Of a stretch of DNA of 64,000 nucleotides, positions 6,920 to 58,727 are shown one piece after another. The position numbers and the translations under genes are program-made. How positions within the stretch are numbered: position 1 is the stretch's first letter; each line of letters opens with the position of its first letter. A model generated the notes under the pieces. That model was not told the origin of the DNA, ran no database searches, and saw only the letters and a list, made by a program, of their open reading frames with translations. This DNA comes from Phyllobacteriaceae bacterium (GTDB taxonomy: Bacteria > Pseudomonadota > Alphaproteobacteria > Rhizobiales > Rhizobiaceae). The DNA lies in the NCBI GenBank assembly GCA_016711085.1, contig JADJTR010000005.1, forward strand, positions 230,727 through 294,726. The letters run 5' to 3'.

Positions 6920-7069
6920 GGCGGCGATCCTGTGAAAGGGAATGCGCGGGGGTGCGCAATCCCACTAGCGTCGCCATGTGACAGGCGGGCGAAAATTGCG
7001 TGAAAGTCGGATGACGCGATTTGATCGGCGTCATCGGCGCGTCGTCGAACAGGGGTTATCCAGGAGACG

Positions 7070-9624
<2,555 letters not shown>

Positions 9625-37211: not shown

Positions 37212-37809
37212 TCACGCCAGCATCGGCCACAACGTCGCGGCGAGCGCCACACCCATGGCGATGTTGAACCATTTGAGCCGCGCCGGATCGGCAAGGAAGC
37301 CGCGCAGGCCTTGCCCGAAAGCCGCCCAAAGCGAAACGCAAGGCAAATTGACCAAAGTGAAGACGCCGGCGATGATCGCCACCGAGAAGAATGGCCGGGC
37401 CGGATCGGTGTAGAGCGCCATCGCCGTCACCGCCATCACCCAAGGCTTTCACATTGACCCATTGAAACGCCGCCGCGCCGAGAAAGGTCATCGGTTTGGC
37501 TTCCGCGCCCTTGCCATTCGACAGCGACCGGGCCGAGGCGATTTTCCACGACAGCCACAGCAGATAGGCGCCGCCGGCGATCTTGAGGCCGAGATGCAGC
37601 GCCGGAACCGCGGTCATCAGCGCGCCGAGGCCGAGGCCGACCGCGCAAAGCAGCACGCCGAAGCCGAGCGAGATGCCGAGCATGTGCGGGATCGTGAGGC
37701 GAAAGCCGAAATTCACGCCCGAGGCGAGAAGCATCAGGTTGTTCGGCCCCGGCGTGATCGAGGATACGATGCCGTAGACGGTCAGGGCGAGGATGGTGTC
37801 GAAGCTCAT
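37212..37809 (-). pseudogene. LysE/RhtB-family amino-acid exporter, frame broken once
   Basis: ORF 36865..37809 starts MSFDTILALTVYGIVSSITPGPNNLMLLASG and loses sense after FQWVNVKA. The true C-terminus (WVMAVTAMALYTDPARP...LWPMLA) is ORF 37212..37439. One extra nt lies near 37441-37443. Confidence 0.75.
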
Positions 37810-38747: not shown

Positions 38748-40535
38748 TTAAACCAATTGCCGGCCCTTGGCGTCGATGGCGTTGGCCACCGCCTCGTCGG
38801 TCGCCTCGTCCGGCAGCAGCATCTCGTTGTGCGCCTTGCCCGACGGGATCATCGGGAAGCAGTTGGCGAGATTGGCCACCTCGCAGTCGAAGATCACCGG
38901 CTTCTTCACCGCGATCATCTCGTCGATCGCCGCGTCGAGATCGCCCGGCTTGGCGCAACGGATGCCGTGCCCGCCATAGGCTTTCGCCAGCATGACGAAA
39001 TCCGGCATCGCCTCGGTGTACGAGTTCGACAGGCGGTTGCCGTGCAGCAATTGCTGCCATTGGCGCACCATGCCCATGTAATGGTTGTTCATGATGAAGA
39101 TCTTGATCGGCGCGCCGAATTGCACCGCCGTCGCCATTTCCTGGATCGTCATCTGCACCGAGGCGTCGCCGGCGATGTCGATGACGAGGGCTTCCGGGTG
39201 CGCGATCTGCACGCCGAGCGCCGCCGGCAGGCCGTAGCCCATGGTGCCGAGCCCGCCCGAGGTCATCCAGCGGTTCGGCTTCTCGAAGCCGTAGAACTGC
39301 GCCGCCCACATCTGGTGCTGGCCCACTTCCGTGGTGATGTAGGTGTCCTTGTCCTTGGTCTTTTCATACAGCCGCTGCAGCGCGTATTGCGGCATGATGA
39401 TGTCCTTGTTCGCCTTGTAGGCGAGGCAGTTGCGCGCCCGCCATTTGGCGATCTGCTCCCACCACGGCTCGAGCTTCTTCTTGTCCGGCTTGGCGGTGGC
39501 CCGCCACAGCCGGACCATGTCCTCCAGCACGCGGCCGACATCGCCGAGGATCGGCACGTCGACATGCACGTTTTTGTTCAGCGACGACGGGTCGATGTCG
39601 ATGTGGATCTTTTTCGAGTGCGGCGAGAACGCGTTGAGCCGTCCGGTGATGCGGTCGTCAAAGCGCGCGCCGATGGCGACCATCACGTCGCAATCGTGCA
39701 TCGCCATGTTGGCCTCGTAGGTGCCGTGCATGCCGAGCATGCCGAGCCAGTGCTTGCCGCTCGCCGGATAGGCGCCGAGACCCATCAGCGTCGAGGTCAC
39801 CGGAAAGCCGGTCAGTTCGGCCAGTTCGCGTAAGAGATGGCTCGCCTCCGTGCCCGAATTGATGACGCCGCCGCCCGAATAGATCACCGGGCGCCTGGCC
39901 TCCGCCATCATCGCCACGGCGCGCTTGATTTGATCGAGATCGCCGGTCAGCTTCGGCTGGTAGGAGGCGCGCGGCGCGCCGTTCGGCGGCGTGTAGACGC
40001 CCTTGGCGAACTGCACATCCTTCGGGATGTCGACCACCACCGGTCCGGGCCGGCCGGTTGTCGCCACGCGGAACGCCTCGTGGATGGTTGCGGCGAGCTG
40101 ATTGACGTCCTTCACCAGCCAATTGTGCTTGGTGCAGGGCCGCGTGATGCCGACCGTGTCGCATTCCTGGAAGGCGTCGGAGCCGATCAGCGGAGTCGGC
40201 ACCTGGCCGGTCAGGCAGACGAGCGGGATCGAATCCATCAGCGCGTCCTGCAGCGGCGTGACCATGTTGGTCGCGCCGGGACCGGAGGTCACCAGCGCCA
40301 CGCCCGGCTTGCCGGTGGAGCGGGCGTAACCCTCGGCCGCGTGGCCGGCGCCCTGCTCGTGGCGCACCAGGATGTGCTGCAATTCCTCCTGCTGGAAGAT
40401 TTCGTCGTAGATCGGCAGCACTGCCCCGCCCGGATAACCGAAGACATGCTTGACGCCATTGTCGATCAGCGCCTGCACCACCATTTCCGCGCCGGTCATC
40501 TCGCGCGGGCCCGTTTCTTTCGTCTGCCGTGCCAT
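38748..40535 (-). CDS. ilvI: acetolactate synthase large (catalytic) subunit
   Basis: 595-aa ORF with TPP-enzyme motifs (GYPGGAVLPIYD, GLGTMGYGLPAALG, GDASVQM). Confidence 0.95.
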   Translation of the reverse strand: MARQTKETGPREMTGAEMVVQALIDNGVKHVFGYPGGAVLPIYDEIFQQEELQHILVRHEQGAGHAAEGYARSTGKPGVALVTSGPGATNMVTPLQDALMDSIPLVCLTGQVPTPLIGSDAFQECDTVGITRPCTKHNWLVKDVNQLAATIHEAFRVATTGRPGPVVVDIPKDVQFAKGVYTPPNGAPRASYQPKLTGDLDQIKRAVAMMAEARRPVIYSGGGVINSGTEASHLLRELAELTGFPVTSTLMGLGAYPASGKHWLGMLGMHGTYEANMAMHDCDVMVAIGARFDDRITGRLNAFSPHSKKIHIDIDPSSLNKNVHVDVPILGDVGRVLEDMVRLWRATAKPDKKKLEPWWEQIAKWRARNCLAYKANKDIIMPQYALQRLYEKTKDKDTYITTEVGQHQMWAAQFYGFEKPNRWMTSGGLGTMGYGLPAALGVQIAHPEALVIDIAGDASVQMTIQEMATAVQFGAPIKIFIMNNHYMGMVRQWQQLLHGNRLSNSYTEAMPDFVMLAKAYGGHGIRCAKPGDLDAAIDEMIAVKKPVIFDCEVANLANCFPMIPSGKAHNEMLLPDEATDEAVANAIDAKGRQLV

Positions 40536-40591
40536 CTGTTCAGGTCCGTTCTCTTCGCATTCGAGGGTCGTCTAACGCTTTCGCGGCCAAT

Positions 40592-40613
40592 AAAAAAGGC
40601 CCCCGGAGGAGCC
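40592..40613 (-). terminator. intrinsic terminator/attenuator in the ilvIH leader
   Basis: On the reverse strand: GGCUCC-uccg-GGGGCC followed by UUUUUUAUU. Lies ~55 nt upstream of the ilvI ATG and ~35 nt downstream of the candidate leader peptide. Confidence 0.5.
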
Positions 40614-40647
40614 TGCGTGTCGCGCATGGGAGGCTTTCGCCGGAGGG

Positions 40648-40701
40648 CTACGCCCCCCTGCCCACGCGCGATCCTACGACGAGAATGGCCTGATGTGTCA
40701 T
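40648..40701 (-). promoter_or_regulatory. candidate ilvIH leader peptide (17 codons, Ile-Leu-Val-Val run)
   Basis: Reverse-strand ATG at 40701 gives MTHQAILVVGSRVGRGA-stop. Branched-chain residues are clustered and it lies upstream of the terminator hairpin. No good Shine-Dalgarno sequence seen. Confidence 0.35.
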
Positions 40702-40897
40702 GGGCGCGGATAAAAGGCCCTTCCCCGGCCTGAGTCAAGTGCGCCGAACGGCGCAGGGCGCCGGCTATCCTCTCCCCGCCGGGGGTCCGGAGGACGGGTC
40801 GAGGCAAGCGACTCGACCCCGGAACGGACGAGAGCGCCCGGAACGGGCGCGATCGGGTGAGGGGGCAAACCAGGGTTTGGTTTGTATTGCTTCAATC

Positions 40898-40918
40898 TGT
40901 ATATGATGGCAATATACA
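40898..40918. promoter_or_regulatory. inverted repeat, candidate BrnA operator in the AT-rich brnT promoter region
   Basis: TGTATAT-gatggca-ATATACA ends 3 nt before the brnT ATG (40922). The surrounding ~45 nt are the most AT-rich stretch in this intergenic region. Confidence 0.4.
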
Positions 40919-40921
40919 ATT

Positions 40922-41221
40922 ATGATCGACTGGAGCCTTATCGTTGGGTTCGACTGGGACATCGGCAACGCCCGGAAAAGTGTCGACAAACACGATGTCG
41001 CCCAGGCGGAAGCCGAGCAGGTCTTCTTCAATGAACCTCTGCTCGTGCTGCCGGACGAAAGGCACAGCAGGGATGAGGTGCGCATCCACGCGTTGGGACA
41101 AACCGACGATGGCCGCCTACTGCATTTGACCTTCACGCTGAGGCGGGACGCAACACTGATCCGGGTGATCTCGGCCCGGGACATGAGCCGCAAGGAGCGG
41201 ACGCATTATGAAAAAGCCTGA
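40922..41221 (+). CDS. brnT: BrnT-family toxin (DUF497 ribonuclease type)
   Basis: 99-aa ORF ...FDWDIGNARKSVDKHDVAQAEAEQVF...RIHALGQTDDGRLLHLTFTLRRDATLIRVISARDMSRKERTHYE matches the BrnT pattern (F.WD..K...N..KHGV.F.EA..VF...R.ISAR.A...E...Y). Confidence 0.8.
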   Translation: MIDWSLIVGFDWDIGNARKSVDKHDVAQAEAEQVFFNEPLLVLPDERHSRDEVRIHALGQTDDGRLLHLTFTLRRDATLIRVISARDMSRKERTHYEKA

Positions 41222-41603
41222 ACCCGCCTTCGCCTCGGAAGCCGAGGAACGCGCCTTCTGGGAAAGCCACGATTCGGCCGACCGGCTCGACTGGTCGAAG
41301 GCGGGAAAGCTGCGCCTGCCGAATCTGAAGCCCTCGTCCGTCTCGATTTCGCTGCGCCTGCCGCAATCCCTGCTTGAGCGCATCAAGATCGCCGCCGCCA
41401 AACGCGACGTGCCTTACCAGTCGCTGATCAAGGTCTGGCTGAACGAAAAGGCGGACGGGGAAGGTAAAAGACTACCTCGCCCGAACCGCGCCGACGCCTA
41501 CCGCGACGAAGAGCGGCACGTCCTGCCTCTTCCCTTCCCTGCTTGCGGGGAGGGTGTCGCCCGCAGGGCGACGGGTAGGGGTGGCCGCGAAGCGGCGGCG
41601 TGA
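41208..41603 (+). CDS. brnA: BrnA-family antitoxin with a ~50-aa C-terminal extension
   Basis: Overlaps the brnT end by 14 nt. ...EERAFWESHDS...SVSISLRLPQSLLERIKIAAAKRDVPYQSLIKVWLNEK is the BrnA/CopG-like core. The ORF then reads through a REP-like hairpin pair to the stop at 41603. Confidence 0.75.
   Translation: MKKPEPAFASEAEERAFWESHDSADRLDWSKAGKLRLPNLKPSSVSISLRLPQSLLERIKIAAAKRDVPYQSLIKVWLNEKADGEGKRLPRPNRADAYRDEERHVLPLPFPACGEGVARRATGRGGREAAA
41532..41580. repeat. REP-like double hairpin (solo copy)
   Basis: CTTCCCTGC-tt-GCGGGGAGG followed by TCGCCC-gca-GGGCGA and ACGGGTAGGGG. The same arm-plus-tail architecture recurs at 46265-46300, and related stems recur at 45061-45129. Confidence 0.45.
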
Positions 41604-41652
41604 ACTGCGCATAAGCGCCTTCCTACGGCCCAGTCGACCAAAGAGGACAACC

Positions 41653-43859
41653 TCAGAGCACCAGCGCCAACAATTTCTCGATGGCGTCGCGCAGCGCCAA
41701 CAATGCCGCCTGCCCTTGCGGCGTCGTGGCAATCGATGCCGTCGCACCGATGAAGGCGTAGACCCTTTCGAGAAAGCCGATGGTCCCGAGCACGAACCGG
41801 CGCTTCGGCGTCACGATGGTGGAAGGTTTCCCCGAATCCGCCTGCGTCGGAACGACACTCGACAGATCGGCGGCTTCCTCCCGGATTTGCTGAACAACCC
41901 TGTCGAACGCCGGCGTCGTCATGTCGCTGTCCGAAAGCTCGTTCAGCGCATCCACCACTTTTTCGATCGGTTCCGTCAGTCCCTTGCCGACAGCCTTCTC
42001 CTCGTCGATCGGCGCCTCCGCCATCGCCCGCTCGCGCGCCTCTGGCAGCGGGAAATGGGTAATGAGGAGAAAATGCTTGGCGAAGAACCGGCGGATCAGG
42101 TCGTCGAGTCCTGCCCCCCACATCTCGAAGTCGGCGTGATCGAATTCCTTCTGAAGCGGCCCGAAGAACGACCGCAGGAAATCGGTGTACGGTCGCGTGC
42201 CGCGTTCGCCAAGATGGGTTCGGTAATGAACCAGACAAGACCGAAATACCTTCGGCGCATTTCCGGGCAGGACTTCAATGATAGCATCGGCGAGCGCGCA
42301 TTGCAGACCGGGCATTTCTTTCAGATCGTCAGAGGAAAGCGGCGTATCGAGGTCGGGATTGGCCGTGACGTCAATGCGCGTCTTGCCACCTTCCGCCTTG
42401 CCGATGGGGATCGGCGTTGTCGCGTGTTTGAGGATGCCCTTGAGTTCTTCGCTCGACCTCCGGCCTGGCCGGTAGTCGAGCGCGCGCAGCACCGCGGCGC
42501 GCCGGTCCTCGGCGCTCAATCCGACGAGGTTGGTGTAGACAATTTGCCGGGCCAATGGATTGAGTTCGGTCGGCTTCAACAGGAACGGAAACAATCGGTG
42601 GCGCTCGCCACCGGGATCGGCGGCGTAGGCCGCCGCCCACTCCGCCTGGCAATGATCGGACGCTTCATAGTCCGGCGAATACAAGGCGATCACCCTTCCC
42701 GCTCCGGCCAACCTCGCTGAATCTCGCGCACGAAGTTTGCGCCAGGCTGGAAATCGCGAAACTGGACGCGTGTCGTATATCCGGCGGAACGAACGATCTC
42801 GTCGATCTCGCGCGCGGCGCTTTCGTCCTTGTGCGAATAGCTGATGAAGAAATCCCATTGCGGTCCCCCGCCGGCTTCGGCCACGCCATCGCCGCCCATG
42901 ACAATGGCGCCGGCATCTTGCGCGGGGCGGACTTCGGGGGGATCGGAAGGCGGATCGGCCGGATCGGTCTCGGCTAGTTTGCGCCGGGCTTCCTCGACCC
43001 AGGAGGCGATTTCGCCATTGATCGCCTCCGCCGGCCGATCCCAGAAATCCTTTCGCCCGTCGCCGAGCGCGATGCGGCGGTCGAGTTCCTCGGCCATTTC
43101 GCGCGGCAGGCCGAAAGACGGCGCGGCGGCGACGCGGGCGCGAAACCATTCGCTCCAGATCGGCCAGTTTGTTTTGGGAAAGCGGTCCGGATCGGACGAC
43201 GGCGCGGTCGCCAGAGCCGTATCGAGGTGCCGGTGCTCCTTTTCCCACCAGTCCGGAGCCGCGCCCGGCCACAGCGGCCGGTCGGCCAGTTCGGCCGGCG
43301 GAACGCCGCTTTCTAGCGCTCGCGCATCGGCCGTCACGGCGGCCCAAACGGCGGCGGCGGCTCTGGCGGCGGCGGCGGCGTAGGCGGCGGCTCTGGCGGC
43401 GGCGTAGGCGTAGGCGGCGGCGTAGGCGTAGGCGGCGGCGTAGGCGTCGGCGGCGGCTCTGGCGGCGGCGACGGCTCTGGCGGCGGCTCTGGCGGCGGCG
43501 GCGGCGTAGGCGTAGGCGGCGGCGTAGGCGTAGGCGGCGACGGCGTCGGCGGCGGCTCTGGCGGCGGCGTAGGCGTAGGCGGCGGCTCTGGCGGCGGCTC
43601 GTTCGATTTCGCGGGTCGGATATGTGGCGGCGACCCGCGAAATCGCGTTCGCCCGAAAAACCGCTTCTGTCAAGCGCGGAGCAATCGCCGGATCCGCGAA
43701 TCCGGCGCGCCAGGCGCGACCGGCAAAGGGCAGTGCGCGCATGGCCGCGCGCAGCGCGACGACTTTCGAAAACGCGATGCCATTGCTTTCCGGTCGCGCC
43801 TTCAGCCACGCCTCGACCTGATTGGCGTTCCTAAATCCCCCCTTCGGTATCCCCGCCAT
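41653..43859 (-). pseudogene. TIR-domain protein (~735 codons) with unassigned N- and C-terminal regions; reading frame interrupted once near 42710
   Basis: N-terminal part is in ORF 42690..44075 from MAGIPKGGF (ATG 43859). C-terminal part is in ORF 41653..43809. TIR core is WDFFISYSHKDESAAREIDEIVRSAGYTTRVQFRDFQPGANFVREIQRG / LAGAGRVIALYSPDYEASDHCQAEWAAAYA (about 42470-42854). The halves join if 1 nt is restored at 42708-42713. Confidence 0.75.
43348..43600 (-). repeat. in-frame triplet/hexamer microsatellite encoding an Ala/Tyr/Arg tract inside the TIR gene
   Basis: Plus strand is built only from GGC, TCT, GTA, GTC and GAC triplets. On the coding strand this reads RAAARAAAYAYAAARAAADAVAAYAYAAAYAYAAAAARAAARAVAAARAAADAYAAAYAYAAAYAYAAARAAAYAAAAARAAAA. 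All six frames are open across it. Confidence 0.9.
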
Positions 43860-43941
43860 GATGGGTCCCTTTCCCGCACGCAGAAGTGGCGGGATTGTCG
43901 GGGAAATCAAGGGGCGAGGAGGAATCGTTCCCCTCTCCGGC

Positions 43942-44133
43942 TCGCTTCGCTCGCCACCTTGTAACTCTTCATGTGCCGAATCCGGTATGGTGCCGGTTGC
44001 GGTGGCGGACGGGAGACCGACCCACCTCTGGGCGTGCGAGCCCGTGGGAGGCCGGGTCGCCGTCCGCCGTTCCATCGAACCCGAACAGTCGCATGGGCCG
44101 CAAGCGAAGCCCGTTTAGGCAAGGATGGGAAAG
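43942..44133 (+). ncRNA. candidate IS110 bridge (guide) RNA region, copy A
   Basis: ~190-nt non-coding stretch 5' of the recombinase ORF, GC-rich with several short stem-loops (e.g. GGTGCCGGTTGCGGTGGC...). This is where IS110-subgroup elements encode their bridge RNA. No covariance model was run. Confidence 0.3.
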
Positions 44134-45046
44134 ATGGACGCCATTGTTGTGGGGATCGACGTTTCGAAGGATCGTCTTGACGTATGTGTGACGCCGTCCG
44201 GGAGGCGATGGCTGAAGCCAATGACGCGGCCGGGGTCGAGAAGCTCGCGTTGCCGGGGGCTGACGCCGGCGGTGGCGCTGGGGCGACCGGGGGCTACGAG
44301 ACGCTGGCGGCGGCGCTTTTCGGCTGGGCTTGGCCGTGGTCGTGGTCAACCGGCGCAGGTGCGTTCGTTCGCCGTGCGCTCGGCAAGCGGGCCAAGACCG
44401 ACCCGATCGATGCGGAAGTGATTGCCCGTTTCGCCGCGGCGAGCGGCGTCAGGCCCAAGCCGCTGCCCGATGAACAAAGCCGCTTGCTGGCCGATCTGGT
44501 GACCCGCCGGCGGCAGATCATAGCCATGATCGTGGCCGAGAAGCCCGGCTGAAGCGGGCCGCCAACCGCCAACTCAAAGGCATTGGCCGCCTGCTCGCGG
44601 CGCTTCGGCGCGAACTCAGGACCCTCGACGCCGATCTGGACAAGCAGATACGCAGCTCGCCGGCGTGGCGCATCAAGGAGCAACTGCTGTCGTCCGTGCC
44701 CGGCGTCGGCAAGGCATATCGCGCACCCTGATTGCCGAGCTGCCGGAGATCAGCAGCCTCGACCGCCGCCAGATCGCTTCGCTGGCCGGCCTCGCTCCGT
44801 TCCCCGGCAGTCCGGCAAATGGCGAGGCAAGAGCTTCATCAGCGGCGGCAGGGCGAGCGTGCGCGCCGCCCTCTTCTGGGCGCTTTGGTCGCTTCGCGAC
44901 ACAATCCGTCCTCAAGGCCTTCCGCGACAAACTCGTCGCGCAGGAAAACCAGGATCGTCGCCATCGTCGCGACAGCCCGCAAACTGCTCACCATCCTCAA
45001 CGCCATCATTCGGGAAAACCAACCATGGCGCCAACAAAACGCTTGA
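44134..45046 (+). pseudogene. IS110-family transposase, copy A, multiple frame breaks
   Basis: Pieces are in ORFs 44125..44421, 44184..44552, 44583.., 44665.. and 44732..45046. ATG 44134 is taken as the start because the upstream ATG is out of frame in copy B. Confidence 0.8.
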
Positions 45047-45060
45047 CCGCCAAGACAGTC

Positions 45061-45129
45061 GCTCTCCCCGTGAACGGGGCGAGGTTGAACCAGCGCCTCC
45101 TTTAACCTCGCCCCGCTTGCGGGGAGAGC
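45061..45129. repeat. centre of the IS110 palindrome: two inverted REP-like hairpins around a 17-nt unique spacer
   Basis: GCTCTCCCCG-tgaa-CGGGGCGAGG tt [gaaccagcgcctccttt, 45087-45103] aa CCTCGCCCCG-cttg-CGGGGAGAGC. Confidence 0.7.
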
Positions 45130-45143
45130 GACTGTCTTGGCGG

Positions 45144-46073
45144 TCAAGCGTTTTGTTGGCGCCATGGTTGGTTTTCCCGAATGATGGCGTTGAGGATGGT
45201 GAGCAGTTTGCGGGCTGTCGCGACGATGGCGACGATCCTGGCTTCCCTGCGCGACGAGTTTGTCGCGGAAGGCCTTGAGGGACTGGATTGTGTCGCGAAG
45301 CGACCAAAGCGCCCATGAAGAGGGCGGCGCGCACGCTCGCCCTGCCGCCGCTGATGGGCTTTCGCCTGCCATTTGCCGGACTGGGTGAACGGGAGCGAGG
45401 CCGGCCAGCGAAGCGATCTGGCGGCGGTCGAGGCTGCCGATCTCCGGCAGCCCGGCAATCAGGTGCGCGATATGCCCTTGCCGACGCCGGGCACGGACGA
45501 CAGCAGTTGCTCCTTGATGCGCCACGCCGGCGAGCTGCGTATCTGCTTGTCCAGATCGGCGTCGAGGGTCTCGAGTTCGCGCCGAAGCGCCGCGAGCAGG
45601 CGGCCAATGCTCTTCTTGAGTTGGCGGTTGGCGGCCCGCTTCAGCCGGGCTTCCTCGGCCACGATCATGGCCGATGATCTGCCGCCGGCGGGTCACCAGA
45701 TCGGCCAGCAAGCGGCTTTGTTCATCGGGCAGCGGCTTGGGCCTGACGCCGCTCGCCGCGGCGAAACGGGCAATCACTTCCGCATCGATCGGGTCGGTCT
45801 TGGCCCGCTTGCCGAGCGCATCGGCGAACGAACGCACCTGCGCCGGGTTGACCACGACCACGGCCAAGCCCGCAGCCGAAAGCGCCGCCGCCGCCAGCGT
45901 CTCGTAGCCCCCGGTCGCCTCCAGCGCCACAAGCGCCGGCGTCAGCCCGGCCGCGCAACGCGAGCTTCTCGACCCCGGCCGCGTCATTGGCTTCAGCCAT
46001 CGCCTCCCCGGACGGCGTCACATACGTCAAGACGATCCTTCGAAACGTCGATCCCCACAACAATGGCGTCCAT
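45144..46073 (-). pseudogene. IS110-family transposase, copy B, multiple frame breaks
   Basis: Pieces are in ORFs 45144..45458, 45459..45668, 44912..45607, 44839..45987 and 45993..46223. Start MDAIVVGIDVSKD at 46073. Confidence 0.8.
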
Positions 46074-46264
46074 CTTCTCCCATCCTTGCCTAAACGGGCT
46101 TCGCTTGCGGCCCAGGCGACTGTTCGGGTTCGATGGAACGGCGGACGGCGACCCAGGCTCTCCCACGGGCTCGCACGCCCAGAGGTGGGTCGGTCTCCCG
46201 TCCGCCACCGCAACCGGCACCATACCGGATTCGGCACATGAAGAGTTACAAGGTGGCCCGAAGG
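46074..46264 (-). ncRNA. candidate IS110 bridge (guide) RNA region, copy B
   Basis: Mirror image of 43942-44133 with a few substitutions and indels. Same reasoning as for copy A. Confidence 0.3.
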
Positions 46265-46310
46265 GCCGGAGAGGGGTCGCCCGAAGCCGACGGGTTGGGG
46301 AAAAGCCGCC

Positions 46311-47273
46311 CTACTCCGCCAGATGGCAGGCCACCTCCGCCGCGCCGAGACGGCGCAAGCCCGGCCGCTCGCTCGCGCAGCGCGCGACCGCGATCGGGCA
46401 GCGCGGATGAAAGGCGCAGCCCGACGGCGGGTCGATGGGCGACGGCAATTCGCCGGTCAGCACGATGCGCTCCTTTTTGCGCCGCGGGTCGGCCACTGGC
46501 GTCGCCGACAGCAGCGCGCGTGTGTAGGGGTGGCGAGGTCGGGCGAAGATTTCGTCGCGCGGGCCGGCCTCCACGGCGCGACCGAGATACATCACCATCA
46601 CCTCGTCGGCGACATGGCGCACCACGGAGAGATCGTGGGAAATGAACAGATAGGCAAGGCTCAACCGCTCTTGCAATTCGCCGATCAGGTTCAGCACCTG
46701 CGCCTGGATCGAGATGTCGAGCGCCGAGACCGGCTCGTCGAGCACGAGGATGTCGGGCGACAGCATCAGCGAGCGGGCAATCGCGATGCGCTGGCGCTGG
46801 CCGCCGGAAAACATGTGCGGGTAGCGCTCGCCGAATTCCGGACGCAGGCCGACCGCCTCCATCATCTCGGCGACGGCGTTGCGCCGCTCGTCCGCCCCGC
46901 CGCGATTGTTGACGATCAGCGGCTCCTCCAGCGCGTCGCGCACCCGCTGGCGCGGATTGAGCGAGCCATAGGGATTCTGGAAGACGATCTGCACCTTCGG
47001 CCGCAACACCGCCCGTTCGGCGGCGGTCGCCCTGGCGATATCGATGTCGTCGATGACCAGCGAGCCTTCCGACGGCGGCTCGATCATGGCGACGAGGCGG
47101 GCGAGCGTCGATTTCCCGCAGCCGGATTCGCCGACCACGGCGAGCGTCCTTTTGCGCCGCAGCGTGAACGAGGCGTCGGCGAGCGCGTTGACGGTCGCCA
47201 GTTCGCGGAATGCGCCCCTCGACACGGCATAGCGCCGCGCCAGGTTTTTCGCGGTGAGCACGATGTCGCTCAT
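46311..47273 (-). CDS. dppF: dipeptide ABC transporter ATP-binding protein
   Basis: In-frame tail of ORF 46311..48092 from [11 protein letters not shown] (47273). [25 protein letters not shown], and the oligopeptide C-terminal domain (HPYTRALL...CAFHPRCP). Confidence 0.85.
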   Translation of the reverse strand: MSDIVLTAKNLARRYAVSRGAFRELATVNALADASFTLRRKRTLAVVGESGCGKSTLARLVAMIEPPSEGSLVIDDIDIARATAAERAVLRPKVQIVFQNPYGSLNPRQRVRDALEEPLIVNNRGGADERRNAVAEMMEAVGLRPEFGERYPHMFSGGQRQRIAIARSLMLSPDILVLDEPVSALDISIQAQVLNLIGELQERLSLAYLFISHDLSVVRHVADEVMVMYLGRAVEAGPRDEIFARPRHPYTRALLSATPVADPRRKKERIVLTGELPSPIDPPSGCAFHPRCPIAVARCASERPGLRRLGAAEVACHLAE

Positions 47274-48269: not shown

Positions 48270-49049
48270 TCATTTTCCCTTGCGAACGCCTATATTGCGC
48301 TTGGAACGGAGATTGCGGCCTTGCGTGGACCCATTCGCCCCATCGTCTGACAGGCTGTTCGGCGCCGAAGCGGTAGCGTCGGCTATGGCCTTGGCCGATT
48401 CCTCAAGCGCCGCGCGCGCGCCTCTTTCAACGCTCTCGATGCCCTGCCGGAAATCGATCCCCGCATCCGCGGCGTAGGATTCCAGCGCCTTGCGGGCGTT
48501 TTCGCCGCGTCGGCGAAGAACCCAGACCATGGCGATGAAATTCGCATTGTATTTGGCCTTCTCGGCGGCTGCTTGGCCGAGGAAAAGCGGATCGCGCATG
48601 TCGTGGATCATCAGGTTGGTCTGCTTGGCGGCCCGATAATAGGCAACGACATCGTGAATGATCTCGGACGGCAGGATCGACAGGTCGTCCACCAGGCTTT
48701 CGAACACGAAATCCGTTTCGTCCGGCGTGGCGAACGGGGTCGCCTGGCCAATGGCGTAAGCGATCTCCTCCGGGCGCAATTGATCGTCGGTGAGCACAAT
48801 CGCGCTGAGGATTTCCGCGTGGAGCGCTCGCACCATGTCGCCGACGCGTTCGTTGCGGGCTTTTTCTGCGCGCGCGATTTCGGCCCGGCGTTCTTCTCTT
48901 TCCCGGTTTCGCTCGCCCCTTTGGGTCAACACGTAGGTCAGGACGCCCGTAAATGTCGCCAGAACCGCCGCCACGATTGTCGCCGCGCCACCGATCAGCG
49001 CGTCGAACACGTCCGGATTGGCGAGGACGGATGACCACCGATTGTCCAT
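48270..49049 (-). CDS. hypothetical membrane-anchored protein embedded in the dpp operon
   Basis: 259-aa ORF. One N-terminal TM (ALIGGAATIVAAVLATFTGVLTYVL), a charged helix (RGERNREREERRAEIARAEKARNER), then an unassigned ~190-aa region. 7-nt gap after the dppC stop (containing GAGGGG) and 4-nt gap before the dppD ATG. Visibly lower G+C than its neighbours. Confidence 0.6.
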   Translation of the reverse strand: MDNRWSSVLANPDVFDALIGGAATIVAAVLATFTGVLTYVLTQRGERNREREERRAEIARAEKARNERVGDMVRALHAEILSAIVLTDDQLRPEEIAYAIGQATPFATPDETDFVFESLVDDLSILPSEIIHDVVAYYRAAKQTNLMIHDMRDPLFLGQAAAEKAKYNANFIAMVWVLRRRGENARKALESYAADAGIDFRQGIESVERGARAALEESAKAIADATASAPNSLSDDGANGSTQGRNLRSKRNIGVRKGK

Positions 49050-54665: not shown

Positions 54666-55379
54666 TCAGCGCCTGTCGGCAAGCCACGCCGGCAGGTCGC
54701 CGACCGAATCGAGCACGACATCGGCGAGCGGCGCGAGATTTTCACGCGTGCCGTTGCCGGACAGTACACCCACCGAAAGTCCGGCGCCTGCGGCGCGAGC
54801 CATTTCGAGATCATGGGCGTTGTCGCCGACGACCGCGACTTCCTTCGGCGTCACCCCTGCCCGCTTGGCGAAAAGTATGCACGGATCGGCGGCCGGCTTG
54901 GGATTGTCCACCGCATCGTAGCCGAGCGCGGCGACGAACAGGTCGGCGACGCCGAACGCTTCGAGCGTGCGTTTGGCTCCGGCGGTGGAATCGTTGGTGG
55001 CAAGCCCGATGGCGAATCCGGCCGCGTGCAGCGCCCTCACCGCATCGACCGCGCCCGGCAGCGCCACGGCGCGCTCGGCGACCCCGGCAGTCTTGCGGTC
55101 GGTCTCCGCCACCAGAGAGCGCAGCGGTTCGCCGTCGAGATGGGGATGGAAGTGCTTGACCACCTCGGCATTGGTGCCGGCGGCGAAGACCGAACCGGAA
55201 CGAAACCGGTTTTCGTCCTCGTCATAGCCCCCCTCGCGCAACAACAGATCGGCCCGGCCCATGTCGCCGTCCGCGGCCGACAGCGCCAGATCGCGGGCGA
55301 ATCCGAGCCAGGTCGCGTTGAAATCGAGCAGCGTGCCGTCCTTGTCGAAAAGGATCGCCCTGATGCGGTGACCGCTCAT
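54666..55379 (-). CDS. HAD-superfamily hydrolase (phosphoglycolate-phosphatase-like)
   Basis: 237-aa ORF with motif [12 protein letters not shown] and motif III/IV GDNAHD. ATGA overlap with the pgi stop. Confidence 0.75.
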
Positions 55380-57021
55380 GCCTGCCGCCTCAAATCGTGG
55401 ATATGCGCGATCAACCCGACGGTTGACCCGTCATGCGCCGACGCCGCCTCGCAGCCCTCGACGGCCGCCTGCAGGCCTGTCGCCAATTCCTTGCCGAGTT
55501 CGACGCCCCACTGATCGAAGGCGTTGATATCGAACAGCGTCGCCTCGACGAAAACACGGTGCTCGTAGAGCGCGATCAGCCGGCCGAGCGCGAAGGGATC
55601 GAGCTTGCGATGGACAATGGCGATCGATGGCCGGCTGCCGGGAAAGACCCGGTGCGGCGCCAGCGCCTCGGCCTCGCTCGCGGCCATGCCTTTCGCCGTC
55701 AATTGCGCCAGCGCCTCGGCGCGCGTGCGCCCGCGCATCAACGCTTCGGCTTGCGCCAGGCAATTGGCGAGCAGCAGATCGTGCTGGTGCTTGAGCGCCG
55801 GCTCGTGGCCTTCGGCCGCGACGATGAATTCGACCGGAATGACGTCCGTGCCCTGGTGCAGGAATTGAAAGAAGGCGTGCTGGCCGTTGGTGCCGGGCCG
55901 CCCCAGACCAGCGGGCCGGTCGGCGTCGCCGTCGGCAACCCGTCGACGGTGACGCCCTTGCCGTTCGATTCCATGTCGAGCTGCTGTAAATAGGCCGGCA
56001 ATCTTGCCAGCCTTTGGTCGTAGGGAATGACGGCGCGCGCACCGTGGCCGCAGACGGCGCGATGCCAGAATCCGACCAGGCCGAGCAGCATCGGCAGATT
56101 GTCGCCAATCGGCGCGGAGCGGAAATGCCCGTCCATCGCTCGCCCGCCCGCCAGCATCGCTGCGAAATGATCGGGCCCGATCGCGATCATCACCGGCAGA
56201 CCGATGGCCGACCAGAGCGAATAGCGCCCGCCGACCCAATCCCAGAAGCCGAAGACGCGGTCGGCGGCGATGCCGAAGGCGGCGACCTTGTCGAGCGCCG
56301 TCGACACGGCGGCGAAATGAGCGCCGACCGCCGCTTCGCCGAGCGCGCCGGCGATCCAGCGCCGCGCCGTCGCCGCATTGGTCATCGTTTCAATGGTGGT
56401 GAAGGTCTTGGATGCAACGATGAACAGCGTCGTCGCCGGATCGAGCCATTTCAGCGTGTCGGCAATATGGGCGCCGTCGACATTGGAGACGAAATGCAGG
56501 CGCGGACCGTCGTGGTACGGCGCCAACGCCAATGTCGCCATCGCCGGCCCGAGATCGGAACCGCCGATGCCGATATTGACGACGTCGGTGATGGCAAGCC
56601 CGGTCGCGCCGCGCGCCGCGCCGGAACGCAACTTTTCGGAAAAGTCGCTCATGCGCCCGAGCACATGGCGCACGGCCGGCATCACATCCTCGCCTTCGAC
56701 CATGACCGCCGCGTCCGGGCCGGCGCGCAGCGCCGTGTGCAGCACGGCGCGGTTCTCGGTCACGTTGATTTTTTCGCCAGCGAACATGGCGTCGCGTTTC
56801 GTCTCGACCTCGGCTGCGACAGCCAGATCGACCAGCAGCGCCAGCGTTTCGCCACTCACCGCGCATTTGGAGACATCGAGCAACAAATCGTCGAAACGAC
56901 GCGAAAGGTCGGCGAAGCGGCCCGGATCCGAGGCGAAGGCTTCGCGCATGTCTTTCGGCGCGGTCGTGGCCCGATGCTCCCAAAGGCGGGACAGGGCGGC
57001 GGAAAAGGCGCTTCGGTTCAT
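55376..57021 (-). pseudogene. pgi: glucose-6-phosphate isomerase, frame broken once
   Basis: ORF 55738..57408 from [10 protein letters not shown] (57021) carries [14 protein letters not shown] and ...DMESNGKGV...GPLVWG. The rest ([24 protein letters not shown]...[11 protein letters not shown]) is in ORF 55376..56239. A 1-nt slip lies near 55893-55903. Confidence 0.85.
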
Positions 57022-57137
57022 CGTCGCTCCGGTCGGTTTTCCCTGTCGCTTTCGCGCACTTGCCAGCCATTCGGTCCGGGTATTGTCTCTACGGCAACAG
57101 CCCGGATGGGCAAGCAAAAATTGCCGCGGAGGGGCGC

Positions 57138-58727
57138 ATGGTCGACAATGCAAATGGTGGGGAAACAGCGGCGTCATCCGGCCCGTCGCGCCGTTCCGGC
57201 GGCCGCGAGGCGCGCCGCGCAGCCCGTTCGGCGCCGCTTTCCGACGAATTGAAGCCGGTGCGCCCAGGTCTGGAAGGCGGGCGCTACAGGCCGTTGTCAG
57301 ACGCCGATGTCGGCCGCATCCATGAGGCGGCCCTCGATCTGCTTGAGCGGTTGGGCTTCGGCGCCGCCCCGGCCTCGACGATCGCCGCCTGCGCCAAGGT
57401 CGGCGCACTCCACGGCGACGACGGGCGGCTGCGCTTTCCCCGCGCCGTCGTCGAAAACGCCATCGCTAACGCCGGCCGCGACATCACGCTTTACGGCCAG
57501 GACCCGCGTCACGATATGCAGATATCCGGCGCGCGCGTTCACTACGGCACCGCTGGCGCCGCGGTGCATGTCGTCGACGTGGAAAAACGCGAATACCGCG
57601 AATCGCAGCTTCAGGACCTCTATGACGCCGCCCGCATCGTCGACGTCATGGACAACATCCATTTCTTCCAGCGCACCATGGTGCCGCGCGACATACCCGA
57701 TCCTTTCGACATGGATTTGAACACGCTCTATGCGGCGGTATCCGGCACCACCAAGCATGTCGGCACCTCGTTCACCCATCGCGATCATGTCGGCCCGGCG
57801 CTGGACATGCTCTACGCCATCGCTGGCGGCGAGGACGCGTTTCGCGCCCGCCCCTTCGTCTCCAATTCCAACTGCTTCGTCGTGCCGCCGATGAAATACG
57901 CCGAGGACGCCTGCGGCGTGCTCGAAGCCTGCGTCGAGGGCGGCATTCCGATCCTGCTGCTGTCGGCCGGCCAGGCGGGCGCGACCGCCCCGGCCTCGAT
58001 CGCCGGCGCCGTGGTGCAGGCCGTCGCCGAGGTTCTGGCCGGCTTCGTCTATGTCAATGCGCTGAAACCCGGCCATCCGGCGATATTCGGAACCTGGCCG
58101 TTCGTGTCCGACCTGCGCACCGGCGCCATGTCGGGCGGTTCGGGCGAACAGGCTTTGCTCACCGCCGCCTGCGCCCAGATGGCGCTGTTTTACAATCTGC
58201 CCGGCGGGTCCGCCGCCGGCATGGCCGATGCGAAACTGCCCGATGTCCAGTCCGGCTATGAAAAGGGCATTACCGACGTGATGGCCGGGCTTTCCGGCCT
58301 CAACCTCGTCTACGAGGCGGCGGGCATGCATGCTTCGCTGCTCGGGTTTTCGCTCGAAAGCCTGATCATCGACAACGACATGCTCGGCCAGTGCCTGCGC
58401 TGCGTGCGCGGCATCGACATGTCGGAGGAAGCGCTGTCGGTCGACACGATCATCGATGTCTGCGTCAACGGTCCCGGCCACTATCTCGGCCACGAGCAGA
58501 CATTGGCGCGCATGCAGCGGGATTATTTCTATCCCGCGCTCGGCGACCGTTCGAGCCCGAAGGAATGGGTGGAAAAAGGCCGGCCCGATATCGTGGCCCG
58601 CGCTGTCGCCGAAAAGCGCCGAATCCTGACGACGCATTTCCCCGTCCATGTGACCGAAGCGCTCGACCGCGAACTGCGCTCCCGCTTCCCGGCAATCAGG
58701 CTGCCGCGCGCCGCCATGACGGCATAA
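57138..58727 (+). CDS. MttB-family methyltransferase (no in-frame amber; non-pyrrolysine type)
   Basis: ORF 57060..58727, with the start at MVDNANGG (57138) after GGAGGGG. The family call rests on overall MttB-like length and segments ([35 protein letters not shown]). Confidence 0.7.

Follow-up and report, generated by a model that had tools for sequence, protein, structure and literature searches.

Organization of the locus

The stretch analysed here, referred to as the window, is a 64,000-nt portion of a Phyllobacteriaceae bacterium genome (G000:C5:230727-294726), and our subject is a small islet within it that separates the leader of the ilvIH operon from the 3′ end of dppF. Between that leader and the dppF stop codon we found, in order, a spacer rich in repetitive extragenic palindromic (REP) sequences, the toxin-antitoxin pair brnT-brnA, a convergent gene for a 735-residue TIR protein, and two copies of an IS110-family insertion sequence (IS). 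A preliminary description of this DNA had listed the same parts, and their order, strands and approximate coordinates were all recovered by profile and repeat searches. The islet is a small accessory locus, ordinary in kind; its only part with real discovery potential is the three-domain TIR family with its shuffled N-terminal domain. The sole genome of the same genus available for comparison (G001) is referred to as the sister species.

The brnT-brnA pair

The brnT gene (40922-41221, plus strand) encoded a type II toxin of the RNase family with 99 residues. It matched PF04365 with 79.5 bits (cut-off 34.5) over profile positions 1-77 of 77, which corresponds to a full-length BrnT toxin domain. 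The antitoxin gene brnA (41208-41603, plus strand; 131 residues as assembled) lay directly downstream and overlapped brnT by 14 nt at 41208-41221. Residues 4-81 of BrnA matched PF12441 with 104 bits, and the score against the NCBIfam BrnA equivalog was 51.7 bits, under the cut-off of 60.

As assembled, brnA runs past its stop and continues for 45 codons into REP sequence, where the window reads ...GACGGGGAAGGTAA. The orthologue in the sister species has 86 residues and ends with ...EKADAGR*. Adding one more G to the run of four at 41457-41460 turns the end of the window protein into ...EKADGGR*, also at 86 residues. Judging from this comparison, the true brnA probably encodes 86 residues and ends near 41468, its stop having been lost via a one-base shortfall in the G-run. 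The brnA and TIR stop codons had been placed about 50 nt apart, which is correct for the sequence as assembled (50 nt), but the true gap is probably ~185 nt, with brnA probably ending near 41468.

The inverted repeat TGTATAT-N7-ATATACA was observed within 40885-40920, immediately upstream of the brnT start, and is a plausible candidate for the BrnA operator. The pair resembles the BrnT/BrnA prototype from Brucella abortus in its BrnT_toxin and CopG/ribbon-helix-helix BrnA-type domains, in the toxin-first overlapping bicistron, and in the inverted repeat upstream of brnT. It differs in that the window antitoxin falls below the NCBIfam equivalog cut-off and, as assembled, carries a 45-residue tail, which is probably an artefact.

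The three-domain TIR protein

The TIR gene (41653-43859, minus strand; ATG at 43859, stop codon at 41653-41655) encoded 735 residues when read through a frame break at 42711/42712. The product consisted of an N-terminal domain (N-domain; residues 1-295, 42975-43859), a disordered linker (residues 296-333), the TIR domain (residues 334-463; Pfam TIR_2), and a C-terminal domain (C-domain; residues 464-735, 41656-42471), all read from the minus strand. The TIR_2 profile was matched at positions 1-47 in one frame and at positions 47-115 in the other, on the two sides of the break. A phmmer search of the PDB retrieved BtTir (E = 2.7e-5), and the top Foldseek matches of the modelled half-domain were bacterial TIR domains (BtTir, PdTIR, BtpA, AbTir). 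The motif S..Y..S..C..EW was nearly invariant across the family alignment. Moreover, the Glu of CQAEW aligned with a Glu in both BtTir and Cat1, in a column at least 90% conserved within the family. We take this Glu position to be the catalytic one of TIR NADases.

The domains flanking the TIR core were modelled with AlphaFold2 (AF2), and confidence is given as the predicted local distance difference test (pLDDT). The N-domain was all-helical, with pLDDT ~ 90 outside its Ala-rich repeats and 80 overall for the model of the N-part. The C-domain formed a helical bundle with a β-hairpin (pLDDT 91). Neither domain had a Pfam relative, even at E ≤ 1. With Foldseek at E ≤ 0.001, the half TIR domain was the only part to find a match when the N-part and the C-domain were compared with the PDB and the C-domain also with BFVD.

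Homologues of ~660-730 residues aligned from residue 1 with 33-47% identity and 99-100% coverage. They occurred in Ciceribacter, Affinirhizobium, Agrobacterium vitis and many metagenomes, where they are annotated just as TIR-domain proteins, and a single-protein scan of the genome collection with the TIR protein yielded four distant loci. The protein belongs to an uncharacterised family. Its genes followed dnaG-rpoD in two genomes and lay beside a PIN/MazE pair in one contig; at the homologue loci inspected there was no shared partner gene, and the genes stood alone among core or unrelated genes. PADLOC and NCBIfam searches with the TIR protein returned just weak, below-threshold matches at the level of the TIR domain, among them the PADLOC ThsB model (E = 1.2e-3, 16 bits). 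The Thoeris partner ThsA (SIR2/SLOG or Macro) was not found either in the window, where the TIR neighbours are brnA and the IS, or at the homologue loci.

The window protein shares with BtTir, AbTir, PdTIR, ThsB and Cat1 a TIR_2 domain bearing both the D-F-F-I-S start and the S..C..EW motif, the Glu being aligned for BtTir and Cat1. It differs from all of them in that its TIR domain is flanked by a 295-residue helical N-domain and a 272-residue helical C-domain. Its gene is accompanied by no ThsA, SAVED or CRISPR partner. From the sequence we infer a single-polypeptide, NAD-consuming immunity or abortive-infection protein, in which the flanking domains would act in sensing or gating.

The N-domain family and its mosaic paralogues

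The N-domain family comprised 941 cluster representatives at E ≤ 0.001. Among 73 that were scanned, the domain was fused to TIR in 16, to a KAP NTPase in five, and to Pfam-less regions in 52. A sample of 300 other genomes from the order had it in 16 (~5%), with one copy each. The genome studied here holds three copies: the one in the window, a TIR paralogue (C11:62164-64188), and a KAP NTPase (C4:193501-196398). The C11 gene, on the minus strand, encodes a second TIR protein; it adjoins hemB and has a frame break near its start. The C4 gene, also on the minus strand, joins the N-domain to a KAP P-loop NTPase that has membrane-helix inserts.

Between the window and C11 copies, 81% DNA identity was limited to window positions 42982-43919, that is, the N-domain and 60 nt upstream of it. 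At the protein level, identity was ~75-80% in the N-domain, ~40% in the TIR domain and ~25% in the C-domain. Judged by these identities, the two TIR genes are a recombination mosaic with the break at the domain border.

The Ala-rich coding repeats within the N-domain (43284-43664, minus strand) had periods of 9 and 18 nt, read AAYAYAAAR or similar, and were of low confidence in the AF2 model. These 9/18-nt repeats are slippage-prone. Their variable residues differ among the paralogues, with Y/R in the window, S/D on C11, and an S-rich version on C4.

A homotypic adaptor, in which the N-domain would link the KAP NTPase to the TIR paralogues, was considered and rejected as a general rule. Obligatory pairing of two proteins via the N-domain is unlikely because all of the other matching genomes (16/16) carry a single copy. 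Effector-associated adaptor domains of NTP-dependent conflict systems, described by Kaur et al. (PMC7159879, PMC8195603), offer a parallel in that one N-terminal module is fused alternately to TIR, KAP P-loop NTPase and unknown C-terminal parts; the present module is unlike them in its length of ~300 residues and in showing no gene-neighbourhood link. A more far-reaching proposal, which we put forward only tentatively, is that the TIR gene represents a new single-gene immunity family. The N-domain would then be a sensor or gating module that can be exchanged and is combined with TIR, KAP NTPase or unknown effectors, and recombination precisely at the domain border would transfer it between paralogues, as the window and C11 genes suggest.

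The IS110-family doublet

IS copy 1 (43960-45063, plus strand; PF01548; transposase start near 44131) and IS copy 2 (45127-46250, minus strand; PF01548, 68 bits) were arranged tail-to-tail, copy 2 being inverted relative to copy 1, so that the pair formed a 2.3-kb imperfect palindrome. Both were inserted in one palindromic compound REP. The left outer part of this REP (43913-43959) ended in the target CCAC-CT, the central hairpin (45064-45126) lay between the two IS right ends, and the right outer part (46251-46276) lay ~35 nt from the dppF stop codon at 46311. A CT core was found on both sides of copy 1. All five IS copies in the genome (5/5) read CCAC-CT before the element and CT-CTCCCC after it.

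Two unoccupied REPs, at C1:406944-407067 and C11:65097-65228, read CCACCTCTCCCC. When the IS bodies were removed in a script and one CT was kept per site, the compound palindromic REP was rebuilt, with 86% identity to the C1 and 81% identity to the C11 sequence. As the joined flanks restore an intact palindromic REP, nothing was deleted at insertion. The tail-to-tail arrangement therefore reflects two symmetric targets of one palindrome. An exact 32-mer across the rebuilt empty site had no match in metagenome contigs. Reconstitution of a REP on joining the flanks has been described for REP-targeting IS, among which the IS110 family is the most represented (PMC1525189).

A piecewise reading of the transposase from several IS copies matched NCBIfam transpos_IS110 (NF033542) with 236.9 bits (cut-off 140) over profile positions 1-343; an intact transposase frame was found in none of the five copies in the assembly (0/5). 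The ~175-nt left end of the IS, which carries the putative bridge RNA, contained CCACCUCU, which equals the left target with the core, and GGGAGAG, the complement of the core with the right target. These two segments faced each other across an internal loop that a 9-bp stem, GGCGGACGG/CCGUCCGCC, closes. The same left end held ACAGUCGC, which matches the right end of the element. The guide-like 7-8-mers thus stand in the expected layout, as read from the sequence alone, and Rfam gave no family match.

IS621 is known to use REP targets, a CT core and guide loops in a bridge RNA (PMC11208160). The window elements agree with IS621, ISPa11, ISPpu9, ISPpu10 and ISRm19 in their DEDD transposase (PF01548), in the lack of terminal inverted repeats, in one specific site inside REP hairpins, and in the CT core on both sides (PMC11208160, PMC1525189). 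They also share with IS621-type elements a long non-coding left end in which one sequence equals the left target with the core and another is complementary to the core with the right target. The differences from IS621-type elements are the target, CCAC-CT-CTCCCC in an alphaproteobacterial compound REP, the occupation of both arms of one REP, the distance to the closest annotated relatives, and the assembly's having no copy with an intact frame. Those relatives, IS110-family elements on Sinorhizobium, Shinella and Rhizobium plasmids, were just 69-73% identical at the nucleotide level. The doublet would accordingly represent two bridge-RNA-type insertions into one symmetric target. It is a clean natural example of an IS110-type element in both symmetric targets of one palindromic REP, with target-matching, guide-like sequences that can be read from the element.

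The IS had been placed only ~70 nt upstream of the TIR ATG, and it was suggested that it could have displaced the native promoter or removed an upstream partner gene. The boundary is in fact ~100 nt upstream (ATG at 43859, IS from 43960), beyond the 60-nt upstream block common to the TIR paralogue. Removal of a partner gene does not agree with the intact REP rebuilt from the joined flanks, with the alignment of the TIR protein to its homologues from residue 1 at 99-100% coverage, or with the missing conserved neighbour at the homologue loci. A promoter scan of 40500-46400 found no sigma-70-like site at all and is hence uninformative on a displaced promoter. Since dppF and the TIR gene are co-directional, the IS pair may cut off read-through transcription from dpp into the TIR gene.

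Assembly quality and frame breaks

The assembly (3.57 Mb in 13 contigs, 87.6% complete) needs to be considered before any frame break is interpreted. Its contig ends overlap each other with 86-92% identity and ~2% gap openings. We also observed that the 25-kb contig C9 is a gap-ridden duplicate, 89-95% identical, of parts of C11:61818-79277 and C12:1-3901. It is probable that strains are mixed in the assembly or that duplicates were left unpolished.

Several genes in the window other than those of the islet were split. In pgi (55741-57465 and 55379-56239, minus strand), the PGI profile was matched at positions 1-333 and 326-486 over two frames, with the break inside the conserved WGEPGTNGQH motif. 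The E1-E2 ATPase profile of a P-type cation ATPase gene (7025-9621, plus strand) was matched at positions 2-123 and 125-179, also over two frames, and a LysE-family gene (37215-37809, minus strand) was split by a single-base break that truncated it at profile position 110. The five IS copies were all frame-broken and differed mostly by private indels of 1-3 nt, with few substitutions; copy 1 had the most indels in the genome (~18 private indel events). The most likely cause of the frame breaks in all IS copies is single-base miscalling in an error-rich assembly of long-read type.

Either break in the islet is mended by a single additional base within or beside a short homopolymer run, and in both cases this base restores sequence conserved in relatives. 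For brnA this is the G-run described above. At the TIR break (GG|TTGG at 42711/42712, beside the TT run at 42710-42711), one more base gives ...EIQRGLAGAGRVIALYSPDY, as in the intact paralogue and the family consensus. Three breaks were verified in the window besides that of the TIR gene, and this rate of at least one break per 16 kb corresponds to at least 0.14 breaks expected by error in a 2.2-kb gene. The split housekeeping genes, the indel-laden IS copies and the one-base homopolymer fixes together lead us to read the TIR and brnA breaks as most likely errors of the assembly and not decay. Frame breaks in this assembly are not to be read as pseudogenes.

Comparison with relatives

Aligning the ilvIH-dpp interval with related genomes, a check proposed in the preliminary description, gave an alternative version of the locus with brnTA and without the TIR gene or IS. 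The sister species matched window positions 40500-41452 continuously at 76% identity, from the ilvI start through the leader, the spacer and brnT to brnA, and the match resumed at 46306. Its gene order was ilvI, leader, brnT, brnA, a REP hairpin spacer of ~460 nt, and dppF, and its interval between brnA and dppF contained neither a TIR gene nor an IS. The extra segment of the window is 41453-46305, or 4.85 kb, and holds the TIR gene and the IS pair. Because brnTA is syntenic in both species, with 84% identity for BrnT and 74% for BrnA next to 87% for IlvI, it has been at this site since their common ancestor. The G+C content at third codon positions (GC3) was 0.76 in brnT, 0.79 in brnA and 0.69-0.78 in the TIR gene, and 0.86-0.90 in ilvI and dppCDF.

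Other genera of the family carry unrelated genes, fabH and others, upstream of the ilvI leader. Their genomes were unusable as empty-site comparisons, and for this reason the direction of change is not fixed. The proposal of a small variable locus holds for the TIR/IS segment, which is absent from the sister species, low in GC3, and built on an N-domain of patchy occurrence (16/300), but it does not extend to brnTA, which is syntenic in the sister species and lies outside the variable segment. The idea of a defence island was not borne out. The flanks are the core operons ilvIH and dppBCDF, and there was no cluster of recognised defence systems. The PADLOC run that had been suggested in this connection returned weak matches at the level of the TIR domain, and no system in brnT, brnA or a 259-residue open reading frame (ORF) of the dpp operon beyond one weak match.

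Origin of the islet

The explanation that we favour, with a probability of about 0.68, is that of a layered accessory islet in a REP-filled gap, comprising brnTA, then the TIR gene, then the IS doublet, with the frame breaks as errors. The gap between the ilvIH leader and the dppF 3′ end would have served as a tolerated landing site that was filled in layers. The oldest layer would be the brnT-brnA pair, common to the sister species. A stand-alone, mosaic gene for the 735-residue TIR protein, absent from the sister species, would be the second. In the newest layer, two IS110-family copies would have entered both arms of one palindromic REP by bridge-RNA-guided CT-core recombination, with no flanking DNA lost. 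Read in this way, the islet shows REP clusters between operons as safe landing sites that received a toxin-antitoxin pair, an immunity-type gene and an RNA-guided IS in turn.

For the second layer, we favour a gain of the TIR gene in this lineage because of its atypical GC3 and the patchy distribution of the family (16/300). The opposite course, in which the genus had brnTA-TIR ancestrally and a deletion between REPs removed the TIR gene from the sister species, is clearly the less probable of the two. REPs are able to mediate deletions, the sister species keeps a 460-nt REP spacer that includes a REP like the IS target near dppF, and N-domain-like sequences occur elsewhere in its genome. This course is at odds with the atypical GC3 of the TIR gene, with the 81% DNA identity of its N-domain to the paralogue, a sign of recent origin within the genome or by lateral transfer, and with the presence of the family in only ~5% of the genomes of the order. 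No outgroup had the ilvIH-dpp adjacency. A decaying locus, where the TIR gene would be a true pseudogene by a 1-nt deletion, the brnA stop would really be lost and the IS copies would be dead relics, we regard as unlikely. It would account for the TIR domain split at profile position 47 as assembled, for the 45 codons of brnA in REP sequence and for the lack of any IS copy with an intact frame; moreover, TIR NADases are costly, so that inactivation is plausible. The same type of break, however, affects pgi, the P-type ATPase and the LysE-family gene within the same 64 kb, error alone predicts the rate per 2.2-kb gene given above, and the TIR gene, save for one base, has an open and conserved frame throughout its 735 codons. 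The private indels of the IS copies, with few substitutions, likewise have the pattern of miscalls.

That the inverted doublet is itself an assembly artefact, either a fold-back chimera or merged alleles each with one IS in opposite arms, appears very improbable. No other part of the contig is as noisy as the palindrome (18-22 indel events versus other copies), and the assembly is of low quality overall; nevertheless, the outer flanks are different unique sequences, the TIR upstream region and the dppF 3′ end, and not mirror images, which excludes a simple fold-back, and the two junctions together with the central hairpin correspond exactly to one REP unit. We consider it slightly less probable still that BrnTA and TIR form a composite system of defence in which, for instance, the toxin-antitoxin pair would be the trigger or a safeguard. 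In its favour, the window has the two side by side and convergent, the TIR homologue of Ciceribacter has a brnTA pair at a distance of 4.8 kb, and the PIN/MazE pair adjoins a homologue in one metagenome contig. Toxin-antitoxin pairs are, however, abundant in the order, so that chance proximity is likely; in the sister species brnTA occupies this site and the TIR gene is absent, the C11 paralogue has no adjoining toxin-antitoxin genes, and no gene of a toxin-antitoxin family (Pfam) was called in the 14-kb locus of the Affinirhizobium homologue.

Some points weigh against the layered origin and the roles attached to its parts. The TIR frameshift could be real, the error reading being drawn from sequence comparison. 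A single genome has the same synteny, so a gain in this lineage would look just like a loss in that of the sister species. An intact transposase frame is missing from every IS copy. No experimental or genomic-context evidence ties the TIR family to phage defence, and its PADLOC and NCBIfam matches are weak and below threshold. A sensing role for the N- and C-domains is a guess, since they have no Pfam, PDB or viral structural relative.

Flanking operons and spacer

The genes ilvH and ilvI (38748-40535, minus strand) were preceded by a leader (40581-40701, minus strand) that consisted of an Atu_C8-type RNA, a leader peptide and an attenuator terminator. The Rfam Atu_C8 family (RF02502) matched 40581-40699 on the minus strand with 101.5 bits (E = 1e-21). 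The leader peptide of 17 codons, MTHQAILVVGSRVGRGA in translation, was located at 40648-40701, and a terminator-like hairpin at 40597-40614 was followed by the T-run TTTTTTATT, all on the same strand.

The REP-rich spacer (40702-40900) is also present in the sister species, whose match is unbroken across it. It holds a repeated element of ~100 nt (40769-40868), with copies at C11:64952-65050 (94% identity) and C9:3119-3215 (87%). This element, upstream of brnT, forms nested hairpins, and its C11 copy adjoins the palindromic REP upstream of the TIR paralogue. A partial copy was also observed beside the IS copy on C4 (120941-120979).

On the other side of the islet, beyond the dppF gene, lie dppD, an ORF of unknown function, dppC and dppB. 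The unknown ORF (48270-49049, minus strand; 259 residues) lies within the dpp operon, where gaps of 4-8 nt separate it from dppC and dppD. Its product has one predicted N-terminal membrane helix region, no Pfam match, and a weak PADLOC match to ‘1TM effector’ (E = 1.3e-4). The GC3 of this ORF is 0.74, versus 0.86-0.89 for the dpp genes. The sister species has it in the same position (69% identity), as does just one other of 40 relatives. At the corresponding locus of the sister species (L019, G001:C28:1-3121), DppD is 90% and DppC 60% identical to the window proteins, so that the two genes flanking the inserted ORF have diverged unevenly within one operon.

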